NCBI GenBank assembly: GCA_047639165.1
Contig: JBLINH010000002.1
Span: forward strand, 1 to 54,640
Length of the DNA: 54,640 bases
Source of the DNA: Minisyncoccia bacterium
GTDB taxonomy: Bacteria > Patescibacteriota > Minisyncoccia > Phycocordibacterales > JAACPR01
Direction: 5' to 3'
The translations under genes were made by a program, and so were the position numbers. Below the pieces are notes generated by a model. That model saw nothing but the letters and a program-made list of their open reading frames with translations, made no database searches and had not been told where the DNA came from. Positions within the stretch are counted from its first letter, which is position 1, and the number at the start of each line of letters is the position of its first letter. This document shows, piece by piece, positions 3,051 to 54,640 of this stretch.

Positions 3051-4169
3051 ATGTCCAACGTATTAAAAACTTTTATAGTAATCGTCTTGTTTCTGTCCAT
3101 TGCACCTATTTTTGCATCGGCGCAAGTTCTCCATAACGATTTTCAGGGCACATTCCATGGCAAAGTTATAGAAGTGTTGGATGAAGAGATGCGTGAGATC
3201 CCTGGCACTGATACAGAACACTTATTCCAGACAATAGAGTTTAAGGTCTTGGATGGTCCTCAAGAGGGTGAGGTTATAACTATTGAAAACGATTATCTTG
3301 AGTTAGACAAGGGAGATAAGTTTTATTTTAATTACAATATATACATTGATGGTAGAGAGAGTTACGGAATTGTAAATATAGATCGTAAAGGTCCTCTTAT
3401 ATTTCTTGTCTTTATATTCATTGCAATTATTATTGCTTTTGGGAGATGGCAAGGAGTAAGATCACTCATTGCTTTGGCTGGTAGTTTCTTAGCAATTATA
3501 TTTATACTACTTCCTGGAATACTTAATGGGTGGAATCCATTACTTGCAAGCTTTTTAGTCGCCGGAGCAATTTTGTTTTTAGCTATATTTTTTACACACG
3601 GTTTTAATCGTGAGTCTCTTGTTGCATACGGAGGAACAATGATTGCTGTTGTATTGGCAGGACTCTTTGCAGTCTTCGCAGTGCATATAACTGATCTCTC
3701 TGGTTTTGCTTCTGATGAAAGTATATATCTTAACTTCAATACTGGTGGAACTCTGAACTTTACAGCTCTCTTGCTTGGAGCGTTTATTATTGGTTTTCTT
3801 GGAGTTCTTGATGATATTGCGGTTACTCAATCTGCCGTTGTATCAGAGTTGTTTAATAGTAATCCTGAAATGAGTAGAAGAGAGGTGTATAAACGAGCTA
3901 TGCGAGTTGGACGTGAGCACGTGGGCGCGTTAGTAAATACACTTGTTCTTGCTTATACAGGAGCAGCCTTACCACTCCTTCTGTATTTCAAACTAGGATC
4001 TGCGAGTTTTACAACTACCGTTAATCTTGAGATATTTGCTACAGAGATCGTACGAATAATTGTTGGTAGTACTGGTTTAATTTTAACTGTACCAATTGTG
4101 ACATTCTTGGCGGTTAAGTATTTGAAGGGTTATAAATCTAAGCATGGTCATTCACATGTGCACCATTAA
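3051..4169 (+). CDS. YibE/F-family membrane protein with a His-rich C-terminal tail
   Basis: Signal/TM segment, soluble N-terminal domain and multi-TM C-terminal half. GVLDDIAVTQSAVVSEL and REHVGALVNTLVLAYTGAALP are typical of YibE/F. The tail is KHGHSHVHH. Confidence 0.7.
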   Translation: MSNVLKTFIVIVLFLSIAPIFASAQVLHNDFQGTFHGKVIEVLDEEMREIPGTDTEHLFQTIEFKVLDGPQEGEVITIENDYLELDKGDKFYFNYNIYIDGRESYGIVNIDRKGPLIFLVFIFIAIIIAFGRWQGVRSLIALAGSFLAIIFILLPGILNGWNPLLASFLVAGAILFLAIFFTHGFNRESLVAYGGTMIAVVLAGLFAVFAVHITDLSGFASDESIYLNFNTGGTLNFTALLLGAFIIGFLGVLDDIAVTQSAVVSELFNSNPEMSRREVYKRAMRVGREHVGALVNTLVLAYTGAALPLLLYFKLGSASFTTTVNLEIFATEIVRIIVGSTGLILTVPIVTFLAVKYLKGYKSKHGHSHVHH

Positions 4170-4209
4170 TTAGTATTTTATCTTTTAAACAAATTTTACT
4201 TTTAATATT

Positions 4210-4514
4210 TTATAATACCTCTAGTTTTTCTAGCACCGGTCCATTTTTGAGTAGATATTTTAAATAATTCCTTACATTAATATCCTTGGTTTTAATTTCT
4301 TTTGTCTCACCACTAGTAACCTCCTGAAACTTTCAAAATCTTTCAATTTCATTTTCTTCTGATGTTTAGTTTTTTTCTGTGCAGATATTCCAGAGCCACA
4401 CGATCCACATTCCATAATTCTAGTGAATGCAAATTCTTTTGATCCTCAGGAGAAGTCATGTTCAGTTCGATCTCGAATAGGGGAAACCAACGACTCTGGT
4501 GGTGGAGGGTTCAC
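4210..4514 (-). pseudogene. decayed remnant of a large serine recombinase (zinc-ribbon region)
   Basis: The minus strand reads KEFAFTRIMECGSCGSGISAQKK, matching the FAFTGxxxCGxCGxxIT pattern of the recombinase zinc beta-ribbon. The reading is split over at least three frames with stops, and no N-terminal resolvase domain is present. Confidence 0.4.
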
Positions 4515-4619: not shown

Positions 4620-6023
4620 ATGAAACAGCAAAGAACATACTTAAAAGACTTAAAAGACCATTTAGAAAAAGAGGTTGTTATTAAAGGTTGGATTGATGTT
4701 AGAAGAGACCAAGGAAAGCTTATTTTCTTGGATTTTAGAGATGTGACAGGGAAGGCTCAGGGTGTAATTTTACCAAATGCCACAGAAGCAGGTGAGGTTG
4801 GTAGTACTGTTAGACCAGAATGGGTTGTAGAAGTGAGAGGAAAAGTTAACCCTAGACCAGAAAGGAACGTTCAAGCAGACAAACAAAACGGTGATATCGA
4901 AATAGAAATACTAGACATAACAGTTTTGAACGAAGCGACTACTCCTCCTTTTGATATTTCGACTGATGGAAAAGAGATAAACGAAGAGACTCGATTGGAA
5001 AACCGATATATCGATCTCCGAAGGGACAGAATGCAAGAAAATTTCAAAAAAAGACACTTGTCTTCTCAGTTTGTTCGAGATTTTTTTACCAAAGAAAACT
5101 TTGTAGAAATTGAAACTCCTTATCTAACAAAATCAACTCCAGAAGGTTCTAGAGATTATGTTGTTCCTTCTAGAATTTATCCTGGTAAATTCTATGCACT
5201 TCCTCAGTCTCCACAACAATACAAACAAATTTTGATGTCAGCAGGTTTTGAAAAATATTTTCAAATAGCTCGTTGTTTCAGAGATGAAGACACAAGAGGT
5301 GATAGACAGCCAGAATTTACTCAAATTGACATGGAAATGAGCTTTGTTGATCAGGAAGAGGTAATGAACACAAACGAAAGAATGATTATTGAATTGGTTA
5401 AAGAGATTTATCCAGAGAAGAAGATTCAAGAAATTCCTTTCCCGAGAATTTCATATAAGGAGTCTATGGAAAAGTACGATTCAGATTGTCCTGATATTAG
5501 AGAAGACAAAAAAGACCCAAATTTGCTGGCCTTCTGTTGGGTTGTTGACTTCCCGTTTTTTGAAAAAACAGGTAATGGAGGTTGGACTTTTTCTCATAAC
5601 CCCTTTTCTGCTCCGAAGCCAGAATTCATGGAAGACTTAATAAATAAGGATAAAATTGGGGAAATTGTAGCTGCCCAATACGATATTGTATTGAACGGTT
5701 TTGAGATTGGAGGCGGTGGAATTAGAAACCACAAACCAGAGTATCTACGGAAGACTTTTGAGATTATGGGGTATTCAGATGAAAGGATAGAAACGAACTT
5801 TGCTCATATGCTAAAAGCTCTTGGATCAGGAACTCCTCCACATGGAGGGCTAGCTTTTGGTTTTGATCGTATGATGATGATTTTGCAGAATGAACCAAAT
5901 ATTAGAGAGGTGATTGCTTTTGCAAAGACGGGAGAAGGAAGAGATGTAATGATGGAAGCCCCTTCTGAGATTTCAAAAGAACAACAGGATGAATTGGAGA
6001 TTATTCTAAAAGAGAAAAATTAA
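4620..6023 (+). CDS. aspS: aspartyl-tRNA synthetase, bacterial-type motifs but no GAD insertion domain
   Basis: Motif 2 is FRDEDTRGDRQPEFTQIDMEMSF and motif 3 is GGLAFGFDRMMM. An OB-fold N-terminus is present. Confidence 0.95.
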   Translation: MKQQRTYLKDLKDHLEKEVVIKGWIDVRRDQGKLIFLDFRDVTGKAQGVILPNATEAGEVGSTVRPEWVVEVRGKVNPRPERNVQADKQNGDIEIEILDITVLNEATTPPFDISTDGKEINEETRLENRYIDLRRDRMQENFKKRHLSSQFVRDFFTKENFVEIETPYLTKSTPEGSRDYVVPSRIYPGKFYALPQSPQQYKQILMSAGFEKYFQIARCFRDEDTRGDRQPEFTQIDMEMSFVDQEEVMNTNERMIIELVKEIYPEKKIQEIPFPRISYKESMEKYDSDCPDIREDKKDPNLLAFCWVVDFPFFEKTGNGGWTFSHNPFSAPKPEFMEDLINKDKIGEIVAAQYDIVLNGFEIGGGGIRNHKPEYLRKTFEIMGYSDERIETNFAHMLKALGSGTPPHGGLAFGFDRMMMILQNEPNIREVIAFAKTGEGRDVMMEAPSEISKEQQDELEIILKEKN

Positions 6024-7172: not shown

Positions 7173-8624
7173 ATGTCTAACGATGATATTTACTCAGAAC
7201 GGTTGAAAAAACTAGCATTACTAGAGGAGAAGGGTATTGACCCATATCCTGCACAGTCTTTTAGGACTCATGATAACGCTAGTTTTCTAGAATCTTTTAG
7301 TACTTTCTTTGATTCTCAAGAGAAAGTTGTTCTTGTTGGTAGGGTTATGTCACTTCGAGGACAAGGAGGAATTGTCTTCCTTGATATTTTTGATGGTACA
7401 GCTCGTACTCAAGCTCTTATAAAAAAAGATGATCTGGACGATGAAGTCTTTAACTTATTCGTAGATGCTGTTGGAGTTAGCGATTTCGTAGAAATAACAG
7501 GAACAGCTTTCACTACAAAGAGAGATGTTAATTCGTTACTTGCTACAGACTGGAGAATGCTTTCAAAGAGCTTAAGACAAGTTCCAGATGAATGGTTTGG
7601 TCTTAAAGATGACGATGAACGTTATAGAAAACGATATATAGATATTTTACTTAATCAAGAAACATCTGATCTTGTTAGGAAACGTTCAGTATTCTGGAAT
7701 GCAGTTCGTACTTTTATGTTGGAACGTGATTTTGTGGAGGTTGAAACTCCTGTTCTTGAAACAAAAACTGGAGGAGCAGAAGCTAGACCTTTTGTTACAC
7801 ACCACAACGCTCTTGATATGGATGTCTTTCTAAGGATCTCTACAGAGTTGTGGCATAAGAAACTTATCGTTGGAGGAATTCCAAAAGTGTTTGAAATTGG
7901 TAGGGTCTTTAGAAACGAAGGAATGTCTAGTGAACATGCACAGGACTACACACACTTTGAATTTTACGAAGCATACAAAGATGACCGTGATGGTGTTCCA
8001 ATGATTATTGATCTGTATCGTACTGTTGCTCAAAAAACATTTGGTACCCAACAATTTAAGATTGGAGAGTTTGATGTTGATCTATCTAAAGAATGGGGTA
8101 AGTATGATTTCAATAATCTAATGCAAGAGAACTACGGATTTGATCCTAGAGAAGTAGAGCTAGATGTGGTTAAAGAACAATTAGATAAGGAAGAAATTTC
8201 TTACGATTCTAGTCTTAATCTTGGGAGAGGAGTTGATCTACTTTGGAAAAAGATAAGAAAAACTATCGGTGGCCCAGCTATACTTACTGGAATCCCAGTT
8301 TACCTAGAACCTTTGGCTAAAAAGAACGGAGAAGATCCAAGAGTTGTTGATAGGTTCCAGATATTGTTAGGTGGGAGTGAAGTTGGAAAAGCTTTTAATG
8401 AGCTGAACAATCCAATAGACCAGCGTGAGCGTTTTGAAAAACAGCAAGCACTTCGTGATGCGGGAGATGATGAGGCACAGATGGCTGATTTTGAATATGT
8501 AGAGGCTATGGAATACGGAATGCCACCTATGTTTGGTTTCGGTGTGTCAGAGAGACTGTTTAGTTTCTTATCTAATAAGAGTATTAGAGAGACACAACTT
8601 TTCCCACTTATGCGACCGAAATAA
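7173..8624 (+). CDS. lysS: lysyl-tRNA synthetase, class II
   Basis: RVFRNEG, ELNNPIDQRERFEKQ and GMPPMFGFGVSERL...SIRETQLFPLMRP. Confidence 0.95.
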   Translation: MSNDDIYSERLKKLALLEEKGIDPYPAQSFRTHDNASFLESFSTFFDSQEKVVLVGRVMSLRGQGGIVFLDIFDGTARTQALIKKDDLDDEVFNLFVDAVGVSDFVEITGTAFTTKRDVNSLLATDWRMLSKSLRQVPDEWFGLKDDDERYRKRYIDILLNQETSDLVRKRSVFWNAVRTFMLERDFVEVETPVLETKTGGAEARPFVTHHNALDMDVFLRISTELWHKKLIVGGIPKVFEIGRVFRNEGMSSEHAQDYTHFEFYEAYKDDRDGVPMIIDLYRTVAQKTFGTQQFKIGEFDVDLSKEWGKYDFNNLMQENYGFDPREVELDVVKEQLDKEEISYDSSLNLGRGVDLLWKKIRKTIGGPAILTGIPVYLEPLAKKNGEDPRVVDRFQILLGGSEVGKAFNELNNPIDQRERFEKQQALRDAGDDEAQMADFEYVEAMEYGMPPMFGFGVSERLFSFLSNKSIRETQLFPLMRPK

Positions 8625-8672
8625 AATAAAGTTTGAATCGTCAACAAGTATTACAGTAATTTAAATATAAAA

Positions 8673-9068
8673 ATGAACACAAAAGAAATTAATCAGAAGA
8701 TAACTTTTGAGAATACAGATCCACACTCAGTGTATGAGTTGCTTATGGATTCTAAAAAACATTCAGACTTTACTGGTGAGCCAGCAGATATTAGCCGTGA
8801 GGTGGACGGTAAATGTAATGCTTACGGAGATTGGATAGAAGCTATAAATGTAGAACTCATTCCAGATCAAAAAATCGTACAAAAGTGGCGTGGTGGAGAT
8901 TGGTCTGATGATCATTATTCAGTCGCTACTTTTGAGTTTGAAAGTTTAGGAAATGATACTGTACTAACATTTACTCAAGCAGAAGTTCCTGAAGAAAACC
9001 ACGATGACATCTCTCAAGGATGGCATGATCACTATTGGGACAAGATGAAATCAGCAATCAAGGGTTAG
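8673..9068 (+). CDS. SRPBCC/AHSA1-like domain protein
   Basis: Size and pattern (YELLMDSKKHSDFTG...VQKWR...TFTQ) match the Aha1-like SRPBCC fold. Confidence 0.6.
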   Translation: MNTKEINQKITFENTDPHSVYELLMDSKKHSDFTGEPADISREVDGKCNAYGDWIEAINVELIPDQKIVQKWRGGDWSDDHYSVATFEFESLGNDTVLTFTQAEVPEENHDDISQGWHDHYWDKMKSAIKG

Positions 9069-9096
9069 TTCAAAATAGGATATATACTTAAACTAA

Positions 9097-9126
9097 CTTC
9101 AACATTCTACCGTGTTGAAGTTTTTT
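9097..9126 (+). terminator. rho-independent terminator
   Basis: Hairpin cttcaac...gttgaag followed by a T6 run. Confidence 0.7.
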
Positions 9127-9259
9127 GTATTTCATTGACATTCATAACTTTTTATATAGACTGCTAATTAATAACTATCCATTTAAAAGATTGGGTGGTC
9201 CCGATCTTTAAAAACACAAGTGGAAAATCTATAACTAAAAAAGTATAAAGGATAACATT

Positions 9260-10183
9260 ATGAGACAACAATTTGGAGCCCATTGGCTCATGTCACTAGG
9301 TATATTGAAACCTGGGCAAGGAAAACTTCTCATGAAGGCGGTTTCTGACGCTAAAGCGGAAAAGGCTTCTATTTTTGAGATTATTTGTGGAGTCCTCAAT
9401 TTGATGCCTCCTGAAGAAACAGCAGATGCAATTATTGCAGGAGGGATGGAAGAAGTTTCTATGTGCAGATTCTTTCCCAGTGACGGTGATTGTAATCCGA
9501 TTCTCGATAATAAATTGAAGAATAGCTCTCCTTCTATTATTGCGGTACAAGATGATTTCGCGACAATTCGTGTCCTACAAGACAGAGGAATCGTTGTGAA
9601 TCATTATGTCGGTCCGTCTTGTTTTAAGATTGGACATGACTACAGTAGAATGAGAGAAATTGACTTCATTAATAATGCAATCTCTTTCTACAAAGAACTG
9701 AAAGATGATTTCGAAGAACTTGGCGTTACACCAGCTCTTGAATATCTACGTCCCAGCGAAGATGTGGGTGCTTTGATGGGATTAGACCGCGTTCGTCGTA
9801 TTTGTGAAGCTGATGAACTAGGAGGTCTGGTTAAATGGCATGCTGATCGATTTCACATGCAAGAACGTGAGAAGGATCCTGCAACAGAACTGCGAAGAGG
9901 AGGAGACCTTCTTTCGTATTTTCATGCGCATGGAACCAACCGCGGAGTTGCAGGAAGTGAGAATCTTGACGGAGACCCTTCGGCCACCGATTATACTGAT
10001 TGGAATGATATTAGAAGGGCTCTATATTATATAGGATATATTGGCCCAGTCGTTCCAGAACCGTTCGGACAACAAATAAGAGATATCGCTCCAGAGCTTG
10101 GAGAAGGTCTACCTCCATCAATCGAACCGAACCGTTATTTGCGTCTGACTCATGCTTGTTTCAAAAAGGCTCGTATGGTGTAG
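9260..10183 (+). CDS. xylose-isomerase-like TIM-barrel sugar (phosphate) isomerase/epimerase
   Basis: ALEYLRPSED, HADRFHMQERE, YFHAHGTNRGVAGS and VPEPF resemble ketose 3-epimerase-type metal-ligand motifs. Confidence 0.6.
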   Translation: MRQQFGAHWLMSLGILKPGQGKLLMKAVSDAKAEKASIFEIICGVLNLMPPEETADAIIAGGMEEVSMCRFFPSDGDCNPILDNKLKNSSPSIIAVQDDFATIRVLQDRGIVVNHYVGPSCFKIGHDYSRMREIDFINNAISFYKELKDDFEELGVTPALEYLRPSEDVGALMGLDRVRRICEADELGGLVKWHADRFHMQEREKDPATELRRGGDLLSYFHAHGTNRGVAGSENLDGDPSATDYTDWNDIRRALYYIGYIGPVVPEPFGQQIRDIAPELGEGLPPSIEPNRYLRLTHACFKKARMV

Positions 10184-48482: not shown

Positions 48483-48707
48483 ATGAGCACAAAGCAAAAG
48501 CAGGTTATTTGGAGGTGGTTAAATACCTTTCACAATAGGGGGTATTATAACCTTAAAATAGAAGGAGAGATGCATACCACTGATACTGTTGAGGAAGTCT
48601 CTGGAGCATTTGAAGCTATATTAAAAGCTTCACATTGCACTCAACAACACAGATATCAGGAGGCAAAAAGAACACTTAAATATTTTAACAAGAAAGCCAC
48701 CGCTTAA
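48483..48707 (+). CDS. hypothetical protein, 74 aa
   Basis: ATG start. The terminator hairpin (48693-48724) overlaps its stop. Confidence 0.45.
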   Translation: MSTKQKQVIWRWLNTFHNRGYYNLKIEGEMHTTDTVEEVSGAFEAILKASHCTQQHRYQEAKRTLKYFNKKATA

Positions 48708-48728
48708 TGCGGTGGCTTTATTTATATA

Positions 48729-48766
48729 AAAAAGCCCTGTGTGCTAAGTGCACACAGGGCTTTGGA
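48729..48766 (-). terminator. rho-independent terminator for a minus-strand transcript
   Basis: Stem gccctgtgtgc / gcacacagggc with T6 on the minus strand, lying just downstream of the 34-aa minus-strand micro-ORF. Confidence 0.7.
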
Positions 48767-48777
48767 AAAACTTACAA

Positions 48778-49099: not shown

Positions 49100-50917
49100 A
49101 TGGAAAAATATGTAAAAAATCCTTTCTTGAACTCTTCAAATTTAAATTTATCAGAAAAGGACATAAGTATACTAAACTCCTATACTGAATTTGATACAAT
49201 TGATAATTTTGCCGAAAAATATTGCGAGGAGAAAGAAATAAGTAAATATCTCCATATACTTCTTTACTCAAAAAAATATACCCACCTGTTGATAGCAAAA
49301 ATTGCCAGATTATTGTTATCAAAAATGGTACCAGTAAATAAGCAGGTTGTAGATTCTGTAAAAAAGAAATTAGAGGAATTTAGAGATGAGGAATATTTAG
49401 TTTCAGATAAAGAAGTGGAGACAATTGTATATAAAGAAAAAATAGAGCAGGAAAAAGAAAAGCAAAAAATTGATTATATTTGTATTCCTACAGCAAATAG
49501 ACCTGATAGTCTGAAAGAAGTTTTAGAAAGTTTTTTAAGTTTCGAAAAAAGTAAAGATTATTCCTTTATAATAAGCGACGATAGTACTGATGAAAAAATA
49601 AAAAGTAAAACTATACAAATATTAAAATCTTTTAGAAATAGGTTTAATAAAATATATTATATTGATGAAAAAATAAGATCTGAAGCTGTAAAAAATATTC
49701 ATACAAAAATAAAAAGTAATAAGGAGATTATAGAATTCGGATTATTAAAACATAAAGATATTTTTTCAGTCGGTGCATCGAGAAATTTTCTAACTCTAGC
49801 AACTGCTGGTAAAAAGATTGTAGAAATAGACGATGATGTTATGTCTGGAGATATTAGATCTTTCGCAAAAAAAGATGATGTTCGTTGTACCTATCAGTAT
49901 CCTTTTCAACAAAAAAGATTCTCTAAACTTGAAGATATAAAAGGAGAAAAAATAAAAAAGGATTTTCTGGAAATTTATGAAAGGGTTCTTTCTGAAAAAC
50001 CAAGCTCCATTATAAAAAAAGATAATTTTGTACTTGAGTCATTAAATCAAAATAGTTTAAAAAGCTTACTCGAGGGGAGAGCAACGATAAAGCTTGCTAC
50101 TATGGGACATTTTGGTGATTCAGCAACAAACTCACAAGATCTATTTTTAAAAACTAATTACAAAGAAAGTGACCATATATCGAAACTAAGTGATAAAGAA
50201 TATCTAAGATTAAGAAATGCTGAATATTTCGTAAATCAATCAAAAACAGATCTTTTATACAGTGGAAGCTCTTTCGTTAGTCTAAATTTTGCTCTAGATA
50301 ATAGACAAATTTCTCCGTTTTTTTCTCCACTTGGAAGAGGGGATGAGATCACTTTTTTAAGTTCATTTGAGTTTTGTCATTTTGAGAATATTCAATATTA
50401 CCTCAAAGAGTGCATTCTACACAAAAGACCTGATGGAAAAAATCTGCTCAAAACTAAAATAGAAAAAAGTAAAGTATATCCACCCCTTCTTATCCATAGT
50501 CTAATAACAAATAGTTCAAGTGAGATATTTGAATATGACAGTACTGAAAAAGAAAGATACATTAAAATCGGACAATATCTTGAGGATATAGGAAAGATGA
50601 ACACTGATAACTTTAAGAAGAATTTATTACCTGCTTACAAAAAAATTATTTCAAGTTTATATTATTTTACTGATTTAGCATTTTTCTTAAATAAAGATTG
50701 TAATAAAAGTTATAAAAAAGATCTTAAAAAAGATTATAAAAATTTATCAAAATTTAATACAGATGAATTAAAAGTTGGTTGGCATGAAAAAAGTGAAAAC
50801 ATGGGCATTTATGAAATTAGAGACCTTATATTAAAATTCGGGAAGTTTTATAAAATTTGGCCACAAATGTGGGAACTTTCAAAAGAAGGGGAGATTAAAT
50901 TTATGAGGGAAATATAA
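49100..50917 (+). CDS. 605-aa Lys-rich protein with an N-terminal HTH-like segment, a GT-A (GT2-like) glycosyltransferase core and a large uncharacterised C-terminal region
   Basis: IDYICIPTANRPDSLKEVLESF, FIISDDSTDE and VEIDDDV (DxD) are GT-A hallmarks. The coding sequence is visibly more AT-rich than its neighbours. Confidence 0.6.
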   Translation: MEKYVKNPFLNSSNLNLSEKDISILNSYTEFDTIDNFAEKYCEEKEISKYLHILLYSKKYTHLLIAKIARLLLSKMVPVNKQVVDSVKKKLEEFRDEEYLVSDKEVETIVYKEKIEQEKEKQKIDYICIPTANRPDSLKEVLESFLSFEKSKDYSFIISDDSTDEKIKSKTIQILKSFRNRFNKIYYIDEKIRSEAVKNIHTKIKSNKEIIEFGLLKHKDIFSVGASRNFLTLATAGKKIVEIDDDVMSGDIRSFAKKDDVRCTYQYPFQQKRFSKLEDIKGEKIKKDFLEIYERVLSEKPSSIIKKDNFVLESLNQNSLKSLLEGRATIKLATMGHFGDSATNSQDLFLKTNYKESDHISKLSDKEYLRLRNAEYFVNQSKTDLLYSGSSFVSLNFALDNRQISPFFSPLGRGDEITFLSSFEFCHFENIQYYLKECILHKRPDGKNLLKTKIEKSKVYPPLLIHSLITNSSSEIFEYDSTEKERYIKIGQYLEDIGKMNTDNFKKNLLPAYKKIISSLYYFTDLAFFLNKDCNKSYKKDLKKDYKNLSKFNTDELKVGWHEKSENMGIYEIRDLILKFGKFYKIWPQMWELSKEGEIKFMREI

Positions 50918-50920
50918 ACT

Positions 50921-51264
50921 TTAATCTAATCCGCAAAATCTCCCTCTTGCCCAAGCTCTTTCAACACTACAGAATCCAATCTCATTAACAAGTTTTCCAT
51001 CTTCCTGTAACTCAATTTGCTCTATTACTCCTTCCTTTATTGCTTTAGTCCAAGCTTTTCTAGGTCCTCATTCGTAAATTCTCTTGATAAATAAGCTAAA
51101 CACGTAAAAGACTTGCCTAGCTCCTCTAGGGCAAGTTCCGCCAAACCAAGTGCGATTTGCTTTTGATCGGTATGTATAAGTGAAATAACGCTACTAGTTA
51201 GTGAACCAGCATTTTTAATTGTTGCATCAAAAAGTTTTTCTAGATCAGGTAATTTTTTAGTCAT
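50921..51264 (-). pseudogene. Abi-like (AbiV-type, tentative) gene split by a frameshift
   Basis: MTKKLPDLEKLFDATIKNAGSLTSSVISLIHTDQKQIALGLAELALEELGKSF resembles the AbiV N-terminal helix pair. The frame stops at 51037, and a shifted frame continues KEGVIEQIELQEDGKLVNEIGFCSVERAWARGRFCGLD to 50921. Confidence 0.35.
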
Positions 51265-51422
51265 ATTATTTAACCCCTCTCGAGCACTCACACTACCTCT
51301 CTCTTCTGTGAGCCTTCTCTAGCTCGGACTAAGCAAATTCATTGCAGGGTAAAGCTTTTTTAACTATCATAATGAAATTCAAAACGACCCATCTCGAGCA
51401 CTCGAACTAGTACTCTTCTTTT

Positions 51423-51453
51423 GTGACCCTAAAGTGTGGCTTTCAGAACTTGT
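51423..51453 (-). repeat. inter-cassette element copy C (most degenerate)
   Basis: The plus-strand sequence gtgaccctaaagtgtggctttcagaacttgt matches copy A at 25/31 positions. Confidence 0.6.
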
Positions 51454-51536
51454 ACCGTATAGGGAGTATATCAAATTGAGTGCTGAAACACTGTCAGATA
51501 TGCTCGCTTCAGTATAAATAAAATGCCATAAATCTA

Positions 51537-52226
51537 TTATTTTTGCTTCGTACAATAAGAGATTAGTCGTGAAAGTACATCTATACAGTCAATCACACTG
51601 CCTGTTAAATTGTGTGCTGCGTCTTTTATTTCGCACACAAGCCGTTCTCGGGATGAAGTAGCCCTGGCGATAATTTTATCCTGAGACTCTTTCGGCACTA
51701 CTGTGTCATTTGTGCCTCTGACAAATACGAATGTTCCGCCATAGGATTGCAGTGATGACAAAAGATATTCTTCGCTTGGCATCGTGACAAGTAGTGGTTT
51801 GGTGGTTGTCGGGCTTTTACCACAACCGCTTCCGATCATGATGACCGCTTTAGCTTTTTGTAATAATTCTGGCAATGCAAGCAAGAGCGTTCCGCCGAAT
51901 GAATTACCGACAATAGTGACTTTGTGTTCTTTGGAGATGAGCCCTTCTTGTAAGCAGGCATCAAAACCTTTTTGTATGTCTTCACATTCTTGTTCGAATG
52001 TTTTACCCACAAATGCTTCTAGGGTGTCGGACAGTAAGGCGCCATCTACATCTAATCGGGCAGTGTTGATACATATAAAGTTATACGAGCCCCTGCAGGA
52101 TGAAATGAGTGACATCTCCCACGAATCGGTCGTGCTAGGGTCATGCAATCCATAAATGCCTTTCAAAAATACGACAGTGTTGGTGACTGGACTTGATGAC
52201 TCATACCAAAAAACTTCTATTGGCAA
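51537..52226 (-). CDS. alpha/beta hydrolase (Ser-Asp-His type)
   Basis: Nucleophile elbow VGNSFGG, NDTVVP and AAHNL. The start is TTG, with no ATG nearby. Confidence 0.6.
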   Translation of the reverse strand: MPIEVFWYESSSPVTNTVVFLKGIYGLHDPSTTDSWEMSLISSCRGSYNFICINTARLDVDGALLSDTLEAFVGKTFEQECEDIQKGFDACLQEGLISKEHKVTIVGNSFGGTLLLALPELLQKAKAVIMIGSGCGKSPTTTKPLLVTMPSEEYLLSSLQSYGGTFVFVRGTNDTVVPKESQDKIIARATSSRERLVCEIKDAAHNLTGSVIDCIDVLSRLISYCTKQK

Positions 52227-52328
52227 CGAATGAAAAGACGATGTGAGAGAAAGCTTCTTTACCGCTATCTTCTTCGATACTCTCTTTTTTTTGCGGTATT
52301 TATTTTACTAAATTTTTCTAGACTCATG

Positions 52329-52445
52329 TATGGTATTTATACCATTTGGCTCATATTTTAACTAGTGAGCCTACAGGGTGGCTTTCCGAACTTTTATACT
52401 ACAAAGAGGGGATTAGGGTTTAGTATAGAGAAAATGAAAACACTG
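52329..52445 (-). repeat. inter-cassette element copy B
   Basis: The core gtgagcctacagggtggctttccgaactttt (52366-52396) matches copy A at 28/31 positions. Similarity extends on both sides (tggtat.ttata...ggct and gtttagtatagaga). Confidence 0.65.
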
Positions 52446-52447
52446 CT

Positions 52448-53224
52448 CTAAATCTCATTCATGTCGGTGTCAAAACGAATAGCATATGCAAGTTTATGAC
52501 CAACAAAATTTTGCATAGAATATTTTTTGGAATATTTATCAATATTTTCACTCATTTTTAATACATCTTCTTTATTAAAGTATTTCCACTCACGGTTTTG
52601 TAATCCTATCGAAAGCATGTTTGAGTCATCAGGGGTGGCCTTTATGGCTTCTTCAAAGCTACCGTGTGTTTCTATTTCCTGAGGAAGATTACGACTATAA
52701 CGAAACAAGGCGGAATATTCAGCCAGCAGCTCTTTAATTGCGGCTAGTTCGCTAGAGTATTTTTCTTTAAAACTTTCAAGCCTTGGCTCTTTGTCTTCCC
52801 TTCTTTGTTTTAGTTCTTCATCGTATGATCTGCTATAAGCTGTAAGTGTAAACAGACTTAAAAACAAATCTTTGTCCTGTTCATCAACGATATCTCTTTC
52901 AACTAAATCTTTAAAAATGAAGTTTCTGAGCACACCTCCTATTCTAAAAGCTGAATCGTAACATCTCGCATCAATCAATTGCTTTGGAAATTCATGACCT
53001 CTTTCTTGCATAAAACTTGAGGCTATTGGTTTTCTGTGGATTATACAGTCGCCGTACAAAGAATAGACCTCATCAATATTTTCTAAATGTCTTTCATCCA
53101 CACTCTCTACTTCTCCATCCTTGATAGTAATATCACTTATTAATTTATCTTGTTCTTGCGATAGTATTTCTCCCTCAGCTTCCACTAAATGCTCCCAAAA
53201 ATTATCATCTAAAACATTTTCCAC
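52448..53224 (-). CDS. hypothetical protein, 258 aa
   Basis: Long ORF with a GTG start. No recognisable domain. Confidence 0.5.
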   Translation of the reverse strand: MENVLDDNFWEHLVEAEGEILSQEQDKLISDITIKDGEVESVDERHLENIDEVYSLYGDCIIHRKPIASSFMQERGHEFPKQLIDARCYDSAFRIGGVLRNFIFKDLVERDIVDEQDKDLFLSLFTLTAYSRSYDEELKQRREDKEPRLESFKEKYSSELAAIKELLAEYSALFRYSRNLPQEIETHGSFEEAIKATPDDSNMLSIGLQNREWKYFNKEDVLKMSENIDKYSKKYSMQNFVGHKLAYAIRFDTDMNEI

Positions 53225-53275
53225 ATCTTTTTCAATAAGGCTATTATATACACGCTCAGAAATAGACCTTAAATA

Positions 53276-53473
53276 TTATTTTTGAAAATCATAAATATCG
53301 CCCTGCATTTCTTCTAGCGCAACAAAACCTTTTTCAATTATCTGTTCTTTTAGTCCAGGTATAGCTTCTTCCTCAACCCCTTCTATAATTTCTGGAGTAG
53401 AAGAATCTAGTTCATTTTCGTCTTTATTCTCCTTCGAATTAGCACACATTGCTTCATTTGGTATTTTTTCCAT
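53276..53473 (-). CDS. small acidic protein, 65 aa (MEKIPNEAMCANSKENKDENELDSSTPEIIEGVEEEAIPGLKEQIIEKGFVALEEMQGDIYDFQK)
   Basis: An internal ATG was chosen because the track's longer N-terminus (to 53599) is a translation of the repeat elements. Confidence 0.45.
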   Translation of the reverse strand: MEKIPNEAMCANSKENKDENELDSSTPEIIEGVEEEAIPGLKEQIIEKGFVALEEMQGDIYDFQK

Positions 53474-53494
53474 ATCTATATATCTTATATAAAG

Positions 53495-53530
53495 TTCACA
53501 ACATTCACAACATTCACAAGGTTCACGAAT
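53495..53530. repeat. four tandem 9-mers TTCACAACA / TTCACAACA / TTCACAAGG / TTCACGAAT
   Basis: Read directly. The array abuts the 68-bp direct repeat, and a further TTCACAATG lies at 53681-53689. Confidence 0.8.
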
Positions 53531-53531
53531 A

Positions 53532-53599
53532 GTTCGGAACAAGTTTAGTGGTATGTTTTTATATGGCTTAAATAAAGGCTTAAAAATTTGTGACCCCAC
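53532..53599 (-). repeat. 68-bp direct repeat, distal copy
   Basis: Identical at 67 of 68 positions to 54456..54523. Its last 9 nt (minus sense GTGGGGTCA) equal the tRNA-Glu 3' end. Confidence 0.9.
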
Positions 53600-53668
53600 G
53601 GGGTGGCTTTCCGAACTTTTGGGGTATGGGAAGAGTGTGAGTTTTAGTATGAGAGAGTTGAATGGGGT
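53590..53668 (-). repeat. inter-cassette element copy A
   Basis: Minus sense: ACCCCATTCAACTCTCTCATACTAAAACTC...AAAAGTTCGGAAAGCCACCCCGTGGGGTCAC. Its ends are complementary (ACCCCA/TGGGGT). Confidence 0.7.
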
Positions 53669-53713
53669 AGTTATATAATGTTCACAATGTTAACGTTTAG
53701 TATAAAAGAAAAG

Positions 53714-53750
53714 AACGCCGTACCCGAAGGTCGTGCGTTCTGTTTGAAAG
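53714..53750 (-). terminator. terminator of the 151-aa gene
   Basis: Minus strand: agaacgc-acgaccttcgggtacg-gcgttct followed by TTTTCTTTT. Confidence 0.65.
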
Positions 53751-53798
53751 TTTTAAGAGGATAGAACTCTTTGGTTACTTCACCGAGCAGATGTACTG

Positions 53799-54254
53799 CT
53801 ATTTAAAAAGTTCATGTTCATTCAAGAACTCCTCAGTCGTACTCTCTGTGGTGTAAACCTTAACAGAGTTAGTAAAGATGTCAGGGCTGATTTCTCCTCC
53901 ACTAACACCAACGAGAGAGAATGCTAGAACTCTTTGGTCGAAACCAAAGTTGGTCCATGCTATGTACTCTTTTCCATTCAGTCTCACCACAGACTCCTTT
54001 CCTAATTGGAAGTCGCTAATAACTTCCACGTTGGTTACTGGTGTGACAGGTTCTTCTGAAGGTCTTATGTAAGAGACCCCCCCATTAGGCGCAAATGGTA
54101 CGTGCCACATGTCGCCCTTTATCTGTGCTGGTCTGTGCGTCCCACTTACAGGACAGCGTTCATGAGTCAGAAAGGGGAAATCTTTCCATAAGTCAGATTC
54201 TCCATTAAAACCAACGAGAGAGAAATGTGTGAGTGTAATACGTTTTGTTATCAT
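53799..54254 (-). CDS. hypothetical protein, 151 aa, with an internal FSLVG(F/V)xGxE repeat
   Basis: ATG start with its own promoter and terminator. No recognisable domain. Confidence 0.55.
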   Translation of the reverse strand: MITKRITLTHFSLVGFNGESDLWKDFPFLTHERCPVSGTHRPAQIKGDMWHVPFAPNGGVSYIRPSEEPVTPVTNVEVISDFQLGKESVVRLNGKEYIAWTNFGFDQRVLAFSLVGVSGGEISPDIFTNSVKVYTTESTTEEFLNEHELFK

Positions 54255-54384
54255 GGCGGTAAATTGAGTATGGTTTGAAGGACAATAATCGGTTTAGCTG
54301 ATGCTAAGTTATCAATTACAATCTTTCTTCCAAACTCAATTAACCATTTCTATCCTTTACAAAGAACCTTACTTGACTATCTTA

Positions 54385-54413
54385 AGTATATCATGTTTAG
54401 AGTGTTCTGTCAA
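54385..54413 (-). promoter_or_regulatory. sigma70-type promoter TTGACA-17 nt-TATACT
   Basis: On the minus strand the -35 box TTGACA is at 54413-54408 and the -10 box TATACT at 54390-54385, about 130 nt upstream of the 151-aa gene. Confidence 0.55.
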
Positions 54414-54455
54414 TACCACGTTATGGTTCAATATCTTTGTAATACTTAAGTAAAG

Positions 54456-54523
54456 GTTCGGAACAAGTTTAGGGGTATGTTTTTATATGGCTTAAATAAA
54501 GGCTTAAAAATTTGTGACCCCAC
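54456..54523 (-). repeat. 68-bp direct repeat, tRNA-proximal copy
   Basis: It overlaps the last 9 nt of tRNA-Glu and the 59 nt downstream of it. Confidence 0.9.
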
Positions 54524-54586
54524 AGAGAATCGAACTCTGATTTCAGCCTTGAAAAGGCCGTGTCCTAACCGTTAGACGATGGGGCC
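54515..54586 (-). tRNA. tRNA-Glu (anticodon UUC)
   Basis: Hand-folded: GGCCCCA-TC-GTCT-AACGGTTA-GGAC-A-CGGCC-TTTTCAA-GGCTG-AAAT-CAGAG-TTCGATT-CTCTG-TGGGGTC-A. Confidence 0.9.
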
Positions 54587-54640
54587 AAGACTGGCTTGGC
54601 AGTACGCCAAAATATACCAGTTTTTTGGAAAAAAATCTAG

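Follow-up and report, generated by a model that had tools for sequence, protein, structure and literature searches.

A probable stack of small, recombinase-less islands bounded by large serine recombinase gene tails at tRNA-Glu of a Minisyncoccia bacterium

Comparison with described systems

The closest described system is the ssrA islands of Dehalococcoides (2011, PMC3146451). These are tandem islands downstream of one tDNA, and the tDNA 3' end recurs as a direct repeat at the borders of each island. They include recombinase-less members, and the layout has a large serine recombinase (LSR) ORF overlapping attL. About half of them lack an integration module and were proposed to be cis-mobilisable (PMC3146451). 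We found a similar arrangement in a window of 54,640 nucleotides (the whole stretch analysed) from a Minisyncoccia bacterium. The target here is tRNA-Glu in a patescibacterial host, whereas in Dehalococcoides it is tmRNA in a member of the Chloroflexi. The units here are about 1 kb, single-gene, and recombinase-less, whereas the Dehalococcoides islands are kilobases to tens of kilobases long and carry rdhA operons (PMC3146451). No DsiA, ParB, or Mom module of the Dehalococcoides islands was seen here. The array would thus be a stack of recombinase-less mini-islands, of a kind already known in other bacteria. The units here are unusually small, however, and related strains show that they are still being reshuffled.

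SCCmec and SCC composite islands (CcrAB, CcrC) lie at the 3' end of rlmH and use large serine recombinases. SCC elements are 20 to 60 kb long, have a protein-coding target, and carry the att site outside the ccr ORF. Like the units here, they stack in tandem at a single chromosomal site at the 3' end of a conserved gene, and some members, the pseudo-SCC flanked by att repeats, lack a recombinase (summarized in part in PMC3146451). The host organisms differ.

In integrons, the tyrosine recombinase IntI acts on folded attC sites that have R'' and R' cores. Their cassette arrays resemble this one in having small, mostly single-gene, same-strand units stacked by a fixed site, with a unit order that differs between strains. 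Neither IntI nor a folded attC was found here (folding test and one tyrosine-recombinase query, window). Unlike in integrons, the boundary element is recombinase coding sequence, and many units contain promoter-like sequence of their own.

SSV-type "suicidal" tyrosine integrases of archaeal viruses and plasmids carry attP in the integrase ORF and target tRNA genes (Badel et al. 2020, PMC7253208). Integration splits the gene, inactivates the enzyme, and leaves orphan fragments at the island ends, and fragments of different origins can join again into hybrid genes (PMC7253208). The locus described here is similar in its attP, tRNA target, split gene, and hybrid genes. It differs in having a bacterial serine recombinase, from whose gene no more than the ~30 terminal codons are detached, with all recognised domains staying with the body.

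The LI/A118, Bxb1, and phiC31 integrases have Resolvase and Recombinase domains, Cys-rich zinc-ribbon-like motifs, a short common core, and an outer motif 5 bp farther out in attP, as does the system here (Rutherford et al. 2013, PMC3783163). Their attP is intergenic and their targets are protein-coding or intergenic, whereas here attP lies in the ORF and the target is tRNA-Glu. Strict attP x attB directionality gives them single prophages, in contrast to the arrays here (PMC3783163).

Features of the tRNA-Glu island

Each unit in the window holds one or two cargo genes in the same orientation as the tRNA, and an LSR tail remnant closes it (Table 1). The LSR body is absent from all of them. 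The hydrolase named in the preliminary description was recovered in the Pfam search, and the Abi-like fragment named there was recovered only as a sub-threshold HEPN_AbiV match (E 8e-5). The ORF with this match is the oldest recognisable unit.

The type 1 arm beside the tRNA is probably a degenerate remnant of the ~19 final codons of an LSR body. Its second copy forms an uninterrupted attP-like stretch with copy A. The GTGAAY repeats are likely the -35-type promoter region of unit 2; they also open units in seven other loci (L008, L011, L012, L018, L020, L033, and L040). Junction 4 is degenerate. After its GGCTCAC comes a repeat of the 30-nt sequence found after copy C, and this repeat ends in a Shine-Dalgarno-like GAGGGG. 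This "type 3" sequence also follows motif copies in L025, L037, L095, L104, and L106. The hairpins upstream of tsaD are the probable original downstream flank of tRNA-Glu, hence the far limit of the island. In L015, the sole motif copy sits 87 nt upstream of tsaD.

Table 1. Features of the tRNA-Glu island, with positions in the window
Feature	Position	Strand	Basis or remark
tRNA-Glu(UUC)	54514-54586	-	ARAGORN; Rfam tRNA, 60.7 bits
Putative attB core and B half-site, tRNA-Glu 3' end GTGGGGTCAC	54514-54523		+ strand coordinates
58-nt type 1 arm directly after tRNA, ending GTTCCGAAC	54456-54513	-	Copy 1 of 68-nt repeat
Sigma-70-like promoter, TTGACA-17-TGnTATACT	54385-54413	-	11/12, consensus match only; upstream of 151-aa gene
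Unit 1 cargo, 151-aa ORF	53799-54254	-	No family (Pfam search)
Hairpin and T-run after 151-aa ORF	About 53706-53745		Read from sequence
Copy A, LSR tail remnant CDPTGWLSELLGYGKSVSFSMRELNGVVI and stop	53589-53678	+	Unit 1 end; earlier motif 53590-53620 inside
Type 1 arm, copy 2	About 53532-53588	-	Unit 2 start; 99% identical to copy 1
GTGAAY 9-nt repeats, TTGTGAATG x3	53485-53530	-	Repeat search
Unit 2 cargo, whole extent	52448-53473	-	
Unit 2 cargo, 65-aa acidic ORF	53276-53473	-	No family (Pfam search)
Unit 2 cargo, 258-aa ORF	52448-53224	-	No family (Pfam search)
Copy B, LSR tail remnant SEPTGWLSELLYYKEGIRV and stop	52364-52423	+	Unit 2 end; tblastn E 4e-3 to 1e-2
Unit 3 cargo, 229-aa alpha/beta hydrolase	51537-52226	-	Pfam Abhydrolase_1, E 4e-6
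Copy C, LSR tail remnant ..RALELVLFFCDPKVWLSELVPYREYIKLSAETLSDMLASV and stop, with ~13 upstream codons	51383-51517	+	Unit 3 end; tblastn E 1.5e-2
Junction 4, GGCTCAC (51308-51314) then AGAAGAGAGAGGTAGTGTGAGTGCTCGAGAGGGG	51270-51314	-	Repeats sequence after copy C
84-aa ORF, HEPN_AbiV-like fragment	51037-51291	-	Pfam E 7.8e-5, 23.3 bits, cut-off 27.1 (sub-threshold)
Low-GC 605-aa ORF	49100-50917	+	Between tsaD-side hairpins and units
Two back-to-back terminator hairpins upstream of tsaD	48690-48770		

The repeated element

With up to 3 mismatches allowed, the 54.6-kb window has exactly three occurrences of the motif GGTGGCTTTCCGAACTT (51435, 52377, and 53602). All copies are on the + strand and confined to the island. 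Chance would give 0.12 copies, and three or more were reached in 0 of 100 shuffles. The preliminary description had reported a motif that recurs at the cassette junctions and starts with the tRNA-Glu 3' acceptor sequence, and this holds for the window. A repeat search recovered the three copies in register, with the reported spacings of 942 and 1225 bp, and also the longer match between A and B. From A through B to C, the copies resemble the consensus and the tRNA end less and less, as described.

The same search found two direct copies of a 68-nt sequence, with 99% identity, at positions 53532-53599 and 54456-54523. The repeat consists of the final 10 nt of tRNA-Glu and 58 nt downstream, and it brackets the 151-aa unit. 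This identity argues for a recent event at unit 1.

On the + strand, every motif copy is a fragment of an open reading frame and encodes the final ~20 to 30 codons of an LSR (..CDPxxWLSEL..stop). Like the 68-nt repeat and junction 4, this had been noted only in part in the preliminary description. By homology, the repeated element is the cut-off 3' coding tail of an LSR gene. The motif lies inside intact ORFs of 582 to 603 aa in eight loci (L048, L067, L087, L089, L096, L107, L115, and L124), and these ORFs carry Pfam Resolvase and Recombinase domains. The family has at least 923 homologues, many from Patescibacteria. Tails of the intact LSRs match the window at 53571-53672, 52355-52420, and 51413-51505 (tblastn). 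The match of copy A has an E value of 7e-8 and 53% identity over 34 aa, at residues 547 to 580 of 582. The LSR matches CcrB and CcrC weakly in NCBIfam (E 2e-8 to 2e-11, far below cut-off), and a PDB search found no chain matching at E < 1e-3.

The preliminary description saw no integrase. This is right for the window, where tblastn with intact LSRs found no LSR gene, only the tail remnants and one unrelated fragment. The motif itself, though, is the residue of the integrase gene. The unrelated fragment is an LSR pseudogene piece at 4177-4466.

The preliminary description also likened the element to attC-type folded sites and suggested a cassette-capture system of a kind not described for this lineage. 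Such integron-like capture would use an attC-type site folding as single-stranded DNA and an undescribed recombinase, probably of the tyrosine type. The small, mostly single-gene, same-strand units stacked by a fixed site would fit it. The reported 9-nt inverted arms were found around the core in copy A (AGTTCGGAA, 53531-53539; TTCCGAACT, 53609-53617), and the inverted repeat recurs in 15 junctions. The DNA folding of copy A is at shuffle level (z = -1.4 and -1.3), however, and copy C folds worse than its shuffles. The element has no GTTRRRY core. One tyrosine-recombinase query detected no Xer/IntI-like gene in the window, and the element is demonstrably coding sequence of a serine recombinase. 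We therefore rejected the attC-type site and regard integron-like capture as very improbable. The element is instead an LSR 3' coding tail containing attP. Nor are tandem tDNA islands new, since LSR-driven ones with recombinase-less members are known in Dehalococcoides (PMC3146451).

An intergenic MITE- or REP-like repeat, or a small RNA gene, could also lie near tRNA-Glu by coincidence. The ~110-nt module of motif and type 1 arm does have terminal inverted repeats (AAGTTCKGAA/TTCMGAACTT). The window copies are all within the island, however, and the copies in other genomes lie downstream of tRNA-Glu and point the same way. An Rfam search gave no match to the element, and LSR coding sequence makes up the left part of the module. 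This explanation is extremely improbable.

Integration site and proposed mechanism

The attP site of this LSR family lies within the 3' coding end of the recombinase gene itself (last ~30 codons). The attB site is the 3' end of tRNA-Glu, with the core GGGGTCAC common to both. One locus (L048) is a circular 11.8-kb contig with a 127-nt terminal overlap and an intact LSR gene. Homology of its integrated relatives (L083 and L101) to it stops at GTGACC, 4 to 6 nt inside the motif, and in L101 the break falls 6 nt into the tRNA 3' end. The LSR ORF is convergent into tRNA-Glu in L101, L120, L033, and L125, with the motif 2 to 7 kb off. The + strand across the tRNA-Glu end of the window encodes ..KICDPTENRTLISALKRPCPNR and a stop, a tail also found on integrated LSR homologues. 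Such tRNA-antisense tails (e.g., CDPTENRTLI) end 29 of the 120 best homologues by a strict pattern and about 49 by eye.

Compared with the tRNA T-loop, the motif places AGTTCG 5 bp farther from GTGGGGTCAC. This shift equals the attP versus attB offset of the LI integrase, in which the zinc-ribbon-domain motif lies at bp 16 to 24 of attP and bp 11 to 19 of attB (PMC3783163). The other side of the core has no dyad symmetry with the motif, which counts against this reading. In the fetched DNA (133 loci), 47 motif copies have a tRNA upstream in the same sense, and it is tRNA-Glu for 43 of them, in agreement with the association first described.

We consider it probable that the array is a stack of mini-islands built by an LSR that is split at tRNA-Glu. 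Integration at the tRNA 3' end would cut the LSR ORF in two. The body would land beside tRNA-Glu, convergent with it, and gain a short tail encoded antisense to the tRNA (attL). The LSR's native C-terminal tail (..WLSEL..stop) would stay at the far end of the insert, by the old tRNA flank (attR). Each insertion would restore the tRNA half of attB; later elements could therefore enter there and displace older ones from the tRNA. The outcome in the window would be a stack of at least three units, probably four, each 0.9 to 1.2 kb long. Serial insertion at the tRNA-Glu 3' end, with a repeated element at each junction, was the simplest model of the preliminary description and is supported.

The small units may have moved as blocks. 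They were likely mobilised in trans by an LSR encoded at another place in the genome or brought by an incoming element, and attL may have served again as a target. Canonical LSRs do not accept attL as a substrate (PMC3783163), so repeated insertion would need the tRNA half of attB alone to matter.

Units in related loci

Units without a recombinase are the usual state. Intact LSR genes hold 5 of 119 distinct motif copies. The bounded units (n = 41) have a median length of 942 bp, 36 of them are shorter than 2.5 kb, and their ORFs run 36:8 in the tRNA direction.

The units behave as discrete blocks. Their number and order differ among strains that are 97 to 98.5% identical in their flanks (L080, L040, L109, and L047). 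The contents are [F50], [129aa][F46][F50], and [139aa][F50][129aa]. The units thus turn over, as the preliminary description had raised. A 194-aa unit is 94 to 96% identical across different contexts.

Pure decay is a possible but rather unlikely alternative. Full LSR-carrying elements would have inserted autonomously and then lost the recombinase and most genes, leaving fixed units and no mobilisation in trans. Intermediates exist: L120 is a 2.7-kb minimal autonomous element, L033 and L125 have an N-terminally truncated 315-aa LSR adjoining the tRNA, and L014 and L081 retain a 55-aa remnant. The window copies are more degraded farther from the tRNA, and all contigs of the window's own population have a single arrangement. 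Independent deletions predict random remnant lengths, yet a homologous arm of ~60 nt occurs at 15 junctions and ends at +48 to +52. The central base of this arm agrees with the motif closing the same unit in 11 of 11 units. The variable order and number among near-identical strains and the little-changed 68-nt repeat around unit 1 also argue against decay.

Homologous recombination is unlikely as the whole explanation. LSR-tail remnants (30 to 100 nt of near-identity) would serve as portable homology for RecA-type exchange between strains or with incoming DNA, and genes would be swapped, deleted, or duplicated with no site-specific enzyme currently at work. The motif contains a variable 5-mer that follows neither of the adjoining units consistently in L040, L080, and L109, so part of the events may reflect homologous recombination or gene conversion. 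Some units are flanked by long direct repeats (68 nt in the window and 220 nt in L027), L060 resembles a tandem duplicate, and some unit boundaries fall at GTGAAY repeats that have no core. However, most homology breaks between contexts are within a few nucleotides of the TCAC end of the motif. Between L040 and L080, the break is exactly at the tRNA 3' end, and the tRNA is the partner. This precision exceeds expectation for 20 to 60 nt of homology, and the differing unit orders would need several independent exchanges. Against site-specific movement, no unambiguous excised circle was found; L060 was ambiguous.

Origin of the boundary motif

By translation and alignment, the three motif copies that close units 1, 2, and 3 of the window (A, B, and C) read as orphan coding tails of a large serine recombinase (LSR), the tail being the last 20 to 30 or so codons of the gene. 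ORF clustering of the fetched relatives' loci gave an LSR of up to 603 aa as the widest-spread family, present in 25 loci. Its members L087, L120, L050, and L002 matched Pfam Resolvase (E, 1e-11 to 1e-16) and Recombinase (E, 1e-9 to 1e-13). Elements with an intact motif have the resolvase domain, the Recombinase domain, and the large C-terminal region of an LSR. NCBIfam gave weak, sub-threshold similarity to XisF, CcrB, and CcrC; the CcrB and CcrC matches scored 21 to 43 bits against a cutoff of 900 bits. The family contains at least 923 proteins at E < 1e-20.

The motif lies inside the LSR ORF in L048, L067, L087, L089, L096, L107, L115, and L124, on the strand that corresponds to the plus strand of the window. 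In these ORFs, GTGACCCC...TGGCTTTCMGAACTT encodes ..C-D-P-x-x-W-L-S-E-L.. about 20 to 30 codons upstream of the stop. The window copies translate as CDPTGWLSELLGYGKSVSFSMRELNGVVI (A), SEPTGWLSELLYYKEGIRV (B), and CDPKVWLSELVPYREYIKLSAETLSDMLASV (C), each followed by a stop codon. Intact LSRs detected all three by tblastn (E = 7e-8 for A, 4e-3 for B, and 1.5e-2 for C).

The preliminary description had found no integrase in the window. Pfam and tblastn also found none, but the element itself is the tail of one. In a tblastn search of the window with 14 LSRs, the sole matches were the three tails, the junction at the tRNA, and a pseudogene fragment. No recombinase domain was found by Pfam in the island ORFs, and they do not supply the integrase gene that Islander expects. 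The pseudogene fragment is from an unrelated LSR (tblastn with the L133 LSR; E, 2e-7 and 2e-6). It contains a Cys-rich, zinc-ribbon-like stretch, and there is no tRNA nearby.

Several other readings of the element were rejected. It belongs to no known RNA family: Rfam gave no match to the element in the island at relaxed E values or in 18 related loci at the gathering score. It is not a pseudo-tRNA T-arm with acceptor stem, as its sequence cannot form the T-stem. A candidate outward promoter at TTGATATAAT in the tail coincides with the conserved codons ..RDYIK.., and coding constraint suffices to explain it. The attC-like folded site of the preliminary description, which is among the rejected ALTERNATIVES, has no GTTRRRY R''/R' core. 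Its folding was also unsupported: DNA fold z scores were -1.4 and -1.3 for A, -2.5 and -2.4 for B (unrelated local hairpins), and +1.4 and +1.1 for C.

Distribution of the motif and association with tRNA-Glu

A degenerate 29-nt pattern spanning all three copies was scanned against genome, metagenome, and viral collections. It matched 37 stretches in the one-genome-per-species GTDB set. Nearly all were in MAGs titled as Patescibacteria (Paceibacteria, Nomura-, Kaiser-, Adler-, and Campbellbacteria, and others). The remainder were unclassified "bacterium" MAGs and one contig labeled Gammaproteobacteria. The genomes of Patescibacteria (CPR) are tiny, and gene exchange among these bacteria is poorly documented. 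Metagenome contigs contained 95 matching stretches. IMG/VR viral contigs contained none, giving no evidence for a phage origin.

In the fetched DNA, 47 motif copies have an upstream tRNA in the same orientation. It is tRNA-Glu (UUC or CUC) in 43 of them, at a distance of 0.23 to 8.3 kb. An alignment of all copies contains about 70 conserved nucleotides and stops abruptly at ..GGGTCAC, which is the tRNA end sequence. A dispersed intergenic repeat (REP or MITE) was considered. All three window copies are in the island, and copies in the fetched loci are tied to tRNA-Glu or LSR genes. For the window and these loci this reading was rejected, and the tie to tRNA-Glu proposed in the preliminary description holds.

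One LSR of the family was found in an alphaproteobacterial isolate, Kordiimonas aestuarii (L139, a 1.3-Mb contig; 8001-9731). It is 59% identical to the query and has an intact tail. It adjoins T4SS-like genes (DUF87/TrwB and ArdC), with no tRNA within 8 kb. Its nucleotides TGGCTTTCCGAACTT are identical to those of the CPR copies, which suggests a constraint on the site at the DNA level. An intact tail is not proof of an episome; L136 to L139 contain chromosomal LSRs with intact tails and no tRNA within 8 kb.

A related LSR of 534 aa was found beside the tRNA-Glu array in L121 (12726-14336) and L015 (5474-5776). This LSR converges on tRNA-Val(GAC), which its 3' end overlaps, and apparently represents a sister lineage with another tRNA target.

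Attachment site within the recombinase gene

Comparison of free and integrated elements places attP within the LSR ORF and attB at the tRNA-Glu 3' end, so that integration splits the gene. L048 is an 11.8-kb contig that is circular, as its ends overlap by 127 nt. It encodes an intact 584-aa LSR and a type III restriction-modification pair. Its integrated relatives L083 and L101 are 79 to 83% identical. Homology between L048 and these two spans the recombinase body and ends at GTGACC, 4 to 6 nt into the motif. In L101, it breaks 6 nt into the tRNA-Glu 3' end. The tRNA and motif share a core of 8 to 13 nt, as in small-core attP/attB pairs with hybrid attL and attR.

In L101, L120, L033, and L125, the LSR ORF converges on the tRNA, overlaps attL, and ends in a tail encoded antisense to the tRNA, such as CDPTENRTLI followed by a stop. 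The native tail, now an orphan that constitutes the motif, is found 2.1 to 7.3 kb away. At 2.7 kb, L120 is a minimal autonomous element. The window has no LSR in this position, and the plus strand of its tRNA encodes a tail of the same kind (..KICDPTENRTLISALKRPCPNR and a stop). Among the 120 best homologues, tRNA-antisense tails were found in 29 with a strict pattern and in about 49 by eye. Tails with ..WLSE.. are about as many. Both states are therefore common among these homologues.

AGTTCG, the T-loop sequence of the tRNA, is 23 nt from the TCAC end there and 28 nt from it in the motif. This was seen on the tRNA/tail side only; no symmetric matching motif was recognized in the other half-site. 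In the LI integrase, the zinc-ribbon-domain motif is at bp 16 to 24 in attP and bp 11 to 19 in attB, a 5-bp shift (PMC3783163). The geometry of this one half-site would fit a serine integrase. By analogy, crossover would occur in or beside GTCAC.

Organization of the window array

Coordinates are listed in the table. The 17-mer GGTGGCTTTCCGAACTT with up to 3 mismatches occurs at three sites in the 54.6-kb window, against a chance expectation of 0.12, and none of 100 shuffles gave three. The copies are in register with spacings of 942 and 1,225 bp, as in the preliminary description.

Features of the tRNA-Glu end of the window and other positions on the contig
Feature	Position	Strand	Remarks
Sequence beyond tRNA-Glu 5' end	54587-54640		54 nt, to the contig end
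tRNA-Glu(UUC)	54514-54586	minus
68-nt direct repeat, first copy	54456-54523		Last 10 nt of tRNA and next 58 nt
58-nt arm, first copy	54456-54513
Sequence adjoining the arm	from 54455 downwards		CTTTACTTAAGTATTAC
tRNA 3'-end sequence GTGGGGTCAC	53590-53599		Variants at 52366 and 51423
17-mer, copy A	53602	plus
17-mer, copy B	52377	plus
17-mer, copy C	51435	plus
68-nt direct repeat, second copy	53532-53599		99% identical to first copy
58-nt arm, second copy	53532-53589
GTGAAY 9-nt repeats	53485-53530		TTGTGAATG..
Fourth junction, GGCTCAC	51308-51314		Degenerate; followed by a repeat of the 30 nt found after copy C
605-aa gene	49100-50917	plus	Opposite to units; between AbiV-like fragment and terminators
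Terminator pair	48690-48770		Upstream of tsaD
74-aa ORF	48483-48707	plus	Between tsaD and terminator pair
Unrelated LSR pseudogene fragment	4177-4466	minus	Between ORFs 3051-4169 and 4620-6023

On the minus strand, the tRNA is followed by a 58-nt arm, a promoter-like site, and the 151-aa gene. A hairpin with a T-run, tail A, a second 58-nt arm, and GTGAAY repeats come next. These are followed by the 65-aa and 258-aa genes, tail B, the hydrolase, and tail C. A "type 3" leader, present twice and ending in a Shine-Dalgarno-like GAGGGG, precedes the AbiV-like fragment.

The 68-nt repeat brackets the 151-aa unit. The window thus has an intact tRNA and a displaced direct repeat of its 3' end, which is the Islander criterion for tDNA-integrated genomic islands (PMC4383910). 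CTCACACTCTTCCCATACCCC is part of the unique sequence upstream of copy A. If unit 1 were absent, the tRNA and arm would run straight into TATTCGTGAACC. The 58-nt arm looks like the degenerate last 19 or so codons of the LSR body, the part of the gene before the tail. Serial insertion at the tRNA-Glu 3' end, as proposed earlier, is supported.

GTGAAY repeats are at the start of many units, including those in L017, L029, and L116, and also just upstream of tails. In L040 they are at 130-170. Possible roles for them are as promoter -35 repeats or as recombination hotspots of a second kind.

Units without a recombinase

Units of about 1 kb without a recombinase are the usual state of the motif. Only 5 of 119 distinct motif copies are inside intact LSR ORFs. 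Of the 32 distinct tRNA-Glu junctions, only 5 adjoin an LSR gene or an LSR remnant of 55 aa or more. We found 41 units bounded on both sides by a tRNA or another copy. Their median length is 942 bp, and 36 are shorter than 2.5 kb. The ORFs of small units favor the tRNA direction by 36 to 8. Tandem arrangement was found in the window (three to four units) and in L013, L040, and L109, with two to three motif copies each; the third junction of L109 is degenerate.

A homologous arm of about 60 nt is present at 15 junctions, including both arms of the window. The last bases of this arm are TTCNGAAY in every case and fall at +48 to +52 relative to the core. In 11 of 11 units, the central base of the arm agrees with the variable base of the motif that closes that unit; it agrees with the adjacent motif in 6 of 7. 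The two ends of a unit are therefore inherited together. Pure decay, in which each unit lost its recombinase by independent random deletion, would not produce this pattern. A canonical LSR half-site would lie closer to the core than the TTCNGAAY end does. The far inverted repeat was rejected as such a half-site; it is 48 to 52 bp from the core, whereas the LI integrase contacts bp 16 to 24.

Stacks of units without a recombinase differ between close strains. Four contigs with flanks 97 to 98.5% identical differ in unit content. L080 contains the tRNA, F50 (a 100-aa ORF family), and the flank. L040 contains a 129-aa ORF, F46 (260 aa), F50, and the flank. L109 contains a 139-aa ORF, F50, the 129-aa ORF, and the flank. 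Homology between L040 and L080 breaks exactly where the motif replaces the tRNA end. A 194-aa unit, 94 to 96% identical, is in different contexts in L017, L029, L099, and L116. Homology between contexts usually ends within a few nucleotides of the TCAC end. The left homology boundary of the 194-aa unit is formed by GTGAAY repeats, directly after the stop codon of an unrelated gene. The turnover that the preliminary description had proposed to look for is thus present in other Paceibacteria (L080, L040, and L109). The window's own population showed one array without turnover; the 151-aa and 605-aa proteins were found only on contigs with the same arrangement.

The motif contains a variable 5-mer, the NCNNT of GCCAC-NCNNT-GGGGTCAC, in L040, L080, and L109. 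In these contigs it is always CCTGT beside the chromosomal flank, whichever unit precedes. The 5-mer of one and the same unit varies from strain to strain, and the junctions as a whole fit no single crossover position.

A search for excised circles found terminal overlaps only in L048, which is autonomous, and in L060. L060 is a contig of 1,135 nt with a 123-nt terminal overlap and a 1,012-bp period. The period contains a type 1 arm (the 58-nt stretch that follows the tRNA), a 220-aa ORF, the motif, an X unit, and a chromosomal pseudo 3' end of the tRNA. L060 may be a collapsed tandem duplicate rather than an excised small circle because its repeat unit holds this pseudo 3' end.

X units are stretches of about 150 to 190 nt in L024 (3522-4421), L027 (5728-6457), L060, and L083 (1-122 and 8023-8140). 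They occur behind the tRNA and recur behind the motif. In each, a terminator is combined with an inverted tRNA-like piece and an 18- to 19-nt pseudo 3' end of tRNA-Glu in direct orientation. They supply extra attB-like copies, and the L083 element sits in one.

Proposed mechanism

Each insertion would regenerate the tRNA half of attB, so new elements would enter at the tRNA. Because the downstream flank lacks conservation among genomes, it is probably not recognized. Small units would be moved by an LSR acting in trans, and the swap of tails may affect LSR activity.

Three points count against a purely LSR-driven picture. The 5-mer segregates inconsistently in L040, L080, and L109, some boundaries at GTGAAY repeats have no core, and canonical serine integrases do not act on attL (PMC3783163). 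For these reasons, homologous recombination or gene conversion between the repeated tails probably also contributes.

We tentatively suggest that the 1-kb units without a recombinase may form a serine-recombinase gene-cassette system, a functional analogue of the integron in Patescibacteria. Each unit would retain nothing but an attP module of about 150 nt as its recombination machinery, and an LSR in trans would excise the unit and reinsert it at the tRNA-Glu 3' end. The module would consist of the LSR tail remnant, the core, and the conserved arm of about 60 nt. With such a system, the small-genome CPR bacteria would have a hotspot dedicated to sampling accessory genes one by one.

Comparison with known systems

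The preliminary description had likened the element to attC-type folded recombination sites. The element is instead an orphan recombinase tail, and the recombinase class and the island logic are already known. The closest described system is the ssrA-specific genomic islands of Dehalococcoides, about half of which have no integration module and have been proposed to be cis-mobilizable (PMC3146451). The tandem layout of Dehalococcoides and SCC-type LSR islands is also found in the window, but their targets are ssrA or rlmH rather than tRNA-Glu. A further trait of such islands, an LSR beside attL that converges on the target gene and overlaps attL with its ORF, is shared by the related loci L101, L120, L033, and L125. 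SCCmec composite islands follow a similar logic. Archaeal SSV-type "suicidal" integrases share the attP inside an ORF and the tRNA target (PMC7253208). They are tyrosine recombinases of archaeal hosts, whereas the domains here are those of serine recombinases in Patescibacteria MAGs. A search of the window with one Xer-like tyrosine recombinase query found nothing (best E, 0.03). Unlike an integron, the island showed no IntI up to the contig end, and Pfam found no Phage_integrase domain in its ORFs.

The present case differs from known systems in its tRNA-Glu target and its Patescibacteria host, yet the family has a 59%-identical member in Kordiimonas. Its units are also very small and single-gene, without a recombinase, and they keep a conserved two-armed candidate attP module. 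We found no description of such a system in CPR bacteria in the literature. The LSR survey of Durrant et al. does not mention tRNA targets or attP inside an ORF.

The family is a widespread group of LSRs (at least 923 homologues) that carries its attachment site in its own coding tail and targets tRNA-Glu. It provides concrete candidate attP/attB pairs for uncultivated bacteria. It may also be a source of new serine integrases useful in genome engineering, their target being tRNA-derived and universally conserved. A class of conserved "intergenic" motifs beside tRNA-Glu is explained as well; as orphan gene tails, these would be missed by annotation pipelines. If the units move in trans, they would be a serine-recombinase counterpart of integron cassette arrays. 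They would also be a natural case of integration rewriting the C terminus of a recombinase, which may bear on directionality control.

Cargo and neighboring genes

The hydrolase of the preliminary gene calls is backed by Pfam, but the AbiV call has only a sub-threshold Pfam match, in an 84-aa ORF. The 151-, 65-, and 258-aa ORFs matched no Pfam family. The only homologue found for the 151-aa protein (46% identity) is in an unrelated context. PADLOC detected no defense system among the cargo genes of the window, and four cargo proteins taken from other arrays gave none either.

The interval from tRNA-Glu to tsaD can carry a single unit in other Paceibacteria (L015). In the window it also contains the 605-aa ORF, which has a GC content of 26 to 28% versus about 36% for the window and only a weak GT2 match (E, 2e-4). 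It is probably a separate acquisition. The 74-aa ORF has a sub-threshold match to a fragment of Peptidase_U32 (E, 6e-4) and probably represents what is left of a gene.

An independent JGI contig, L038 (1-54), stops where the window does, 54 nt past the tRNA-Glu 5' end. Related genomes have divergent tRNA-Ser and tRNA-Val genes beyond this point. The assembly therefore probably broke here at a tRNA cluster that is repeated or variable.
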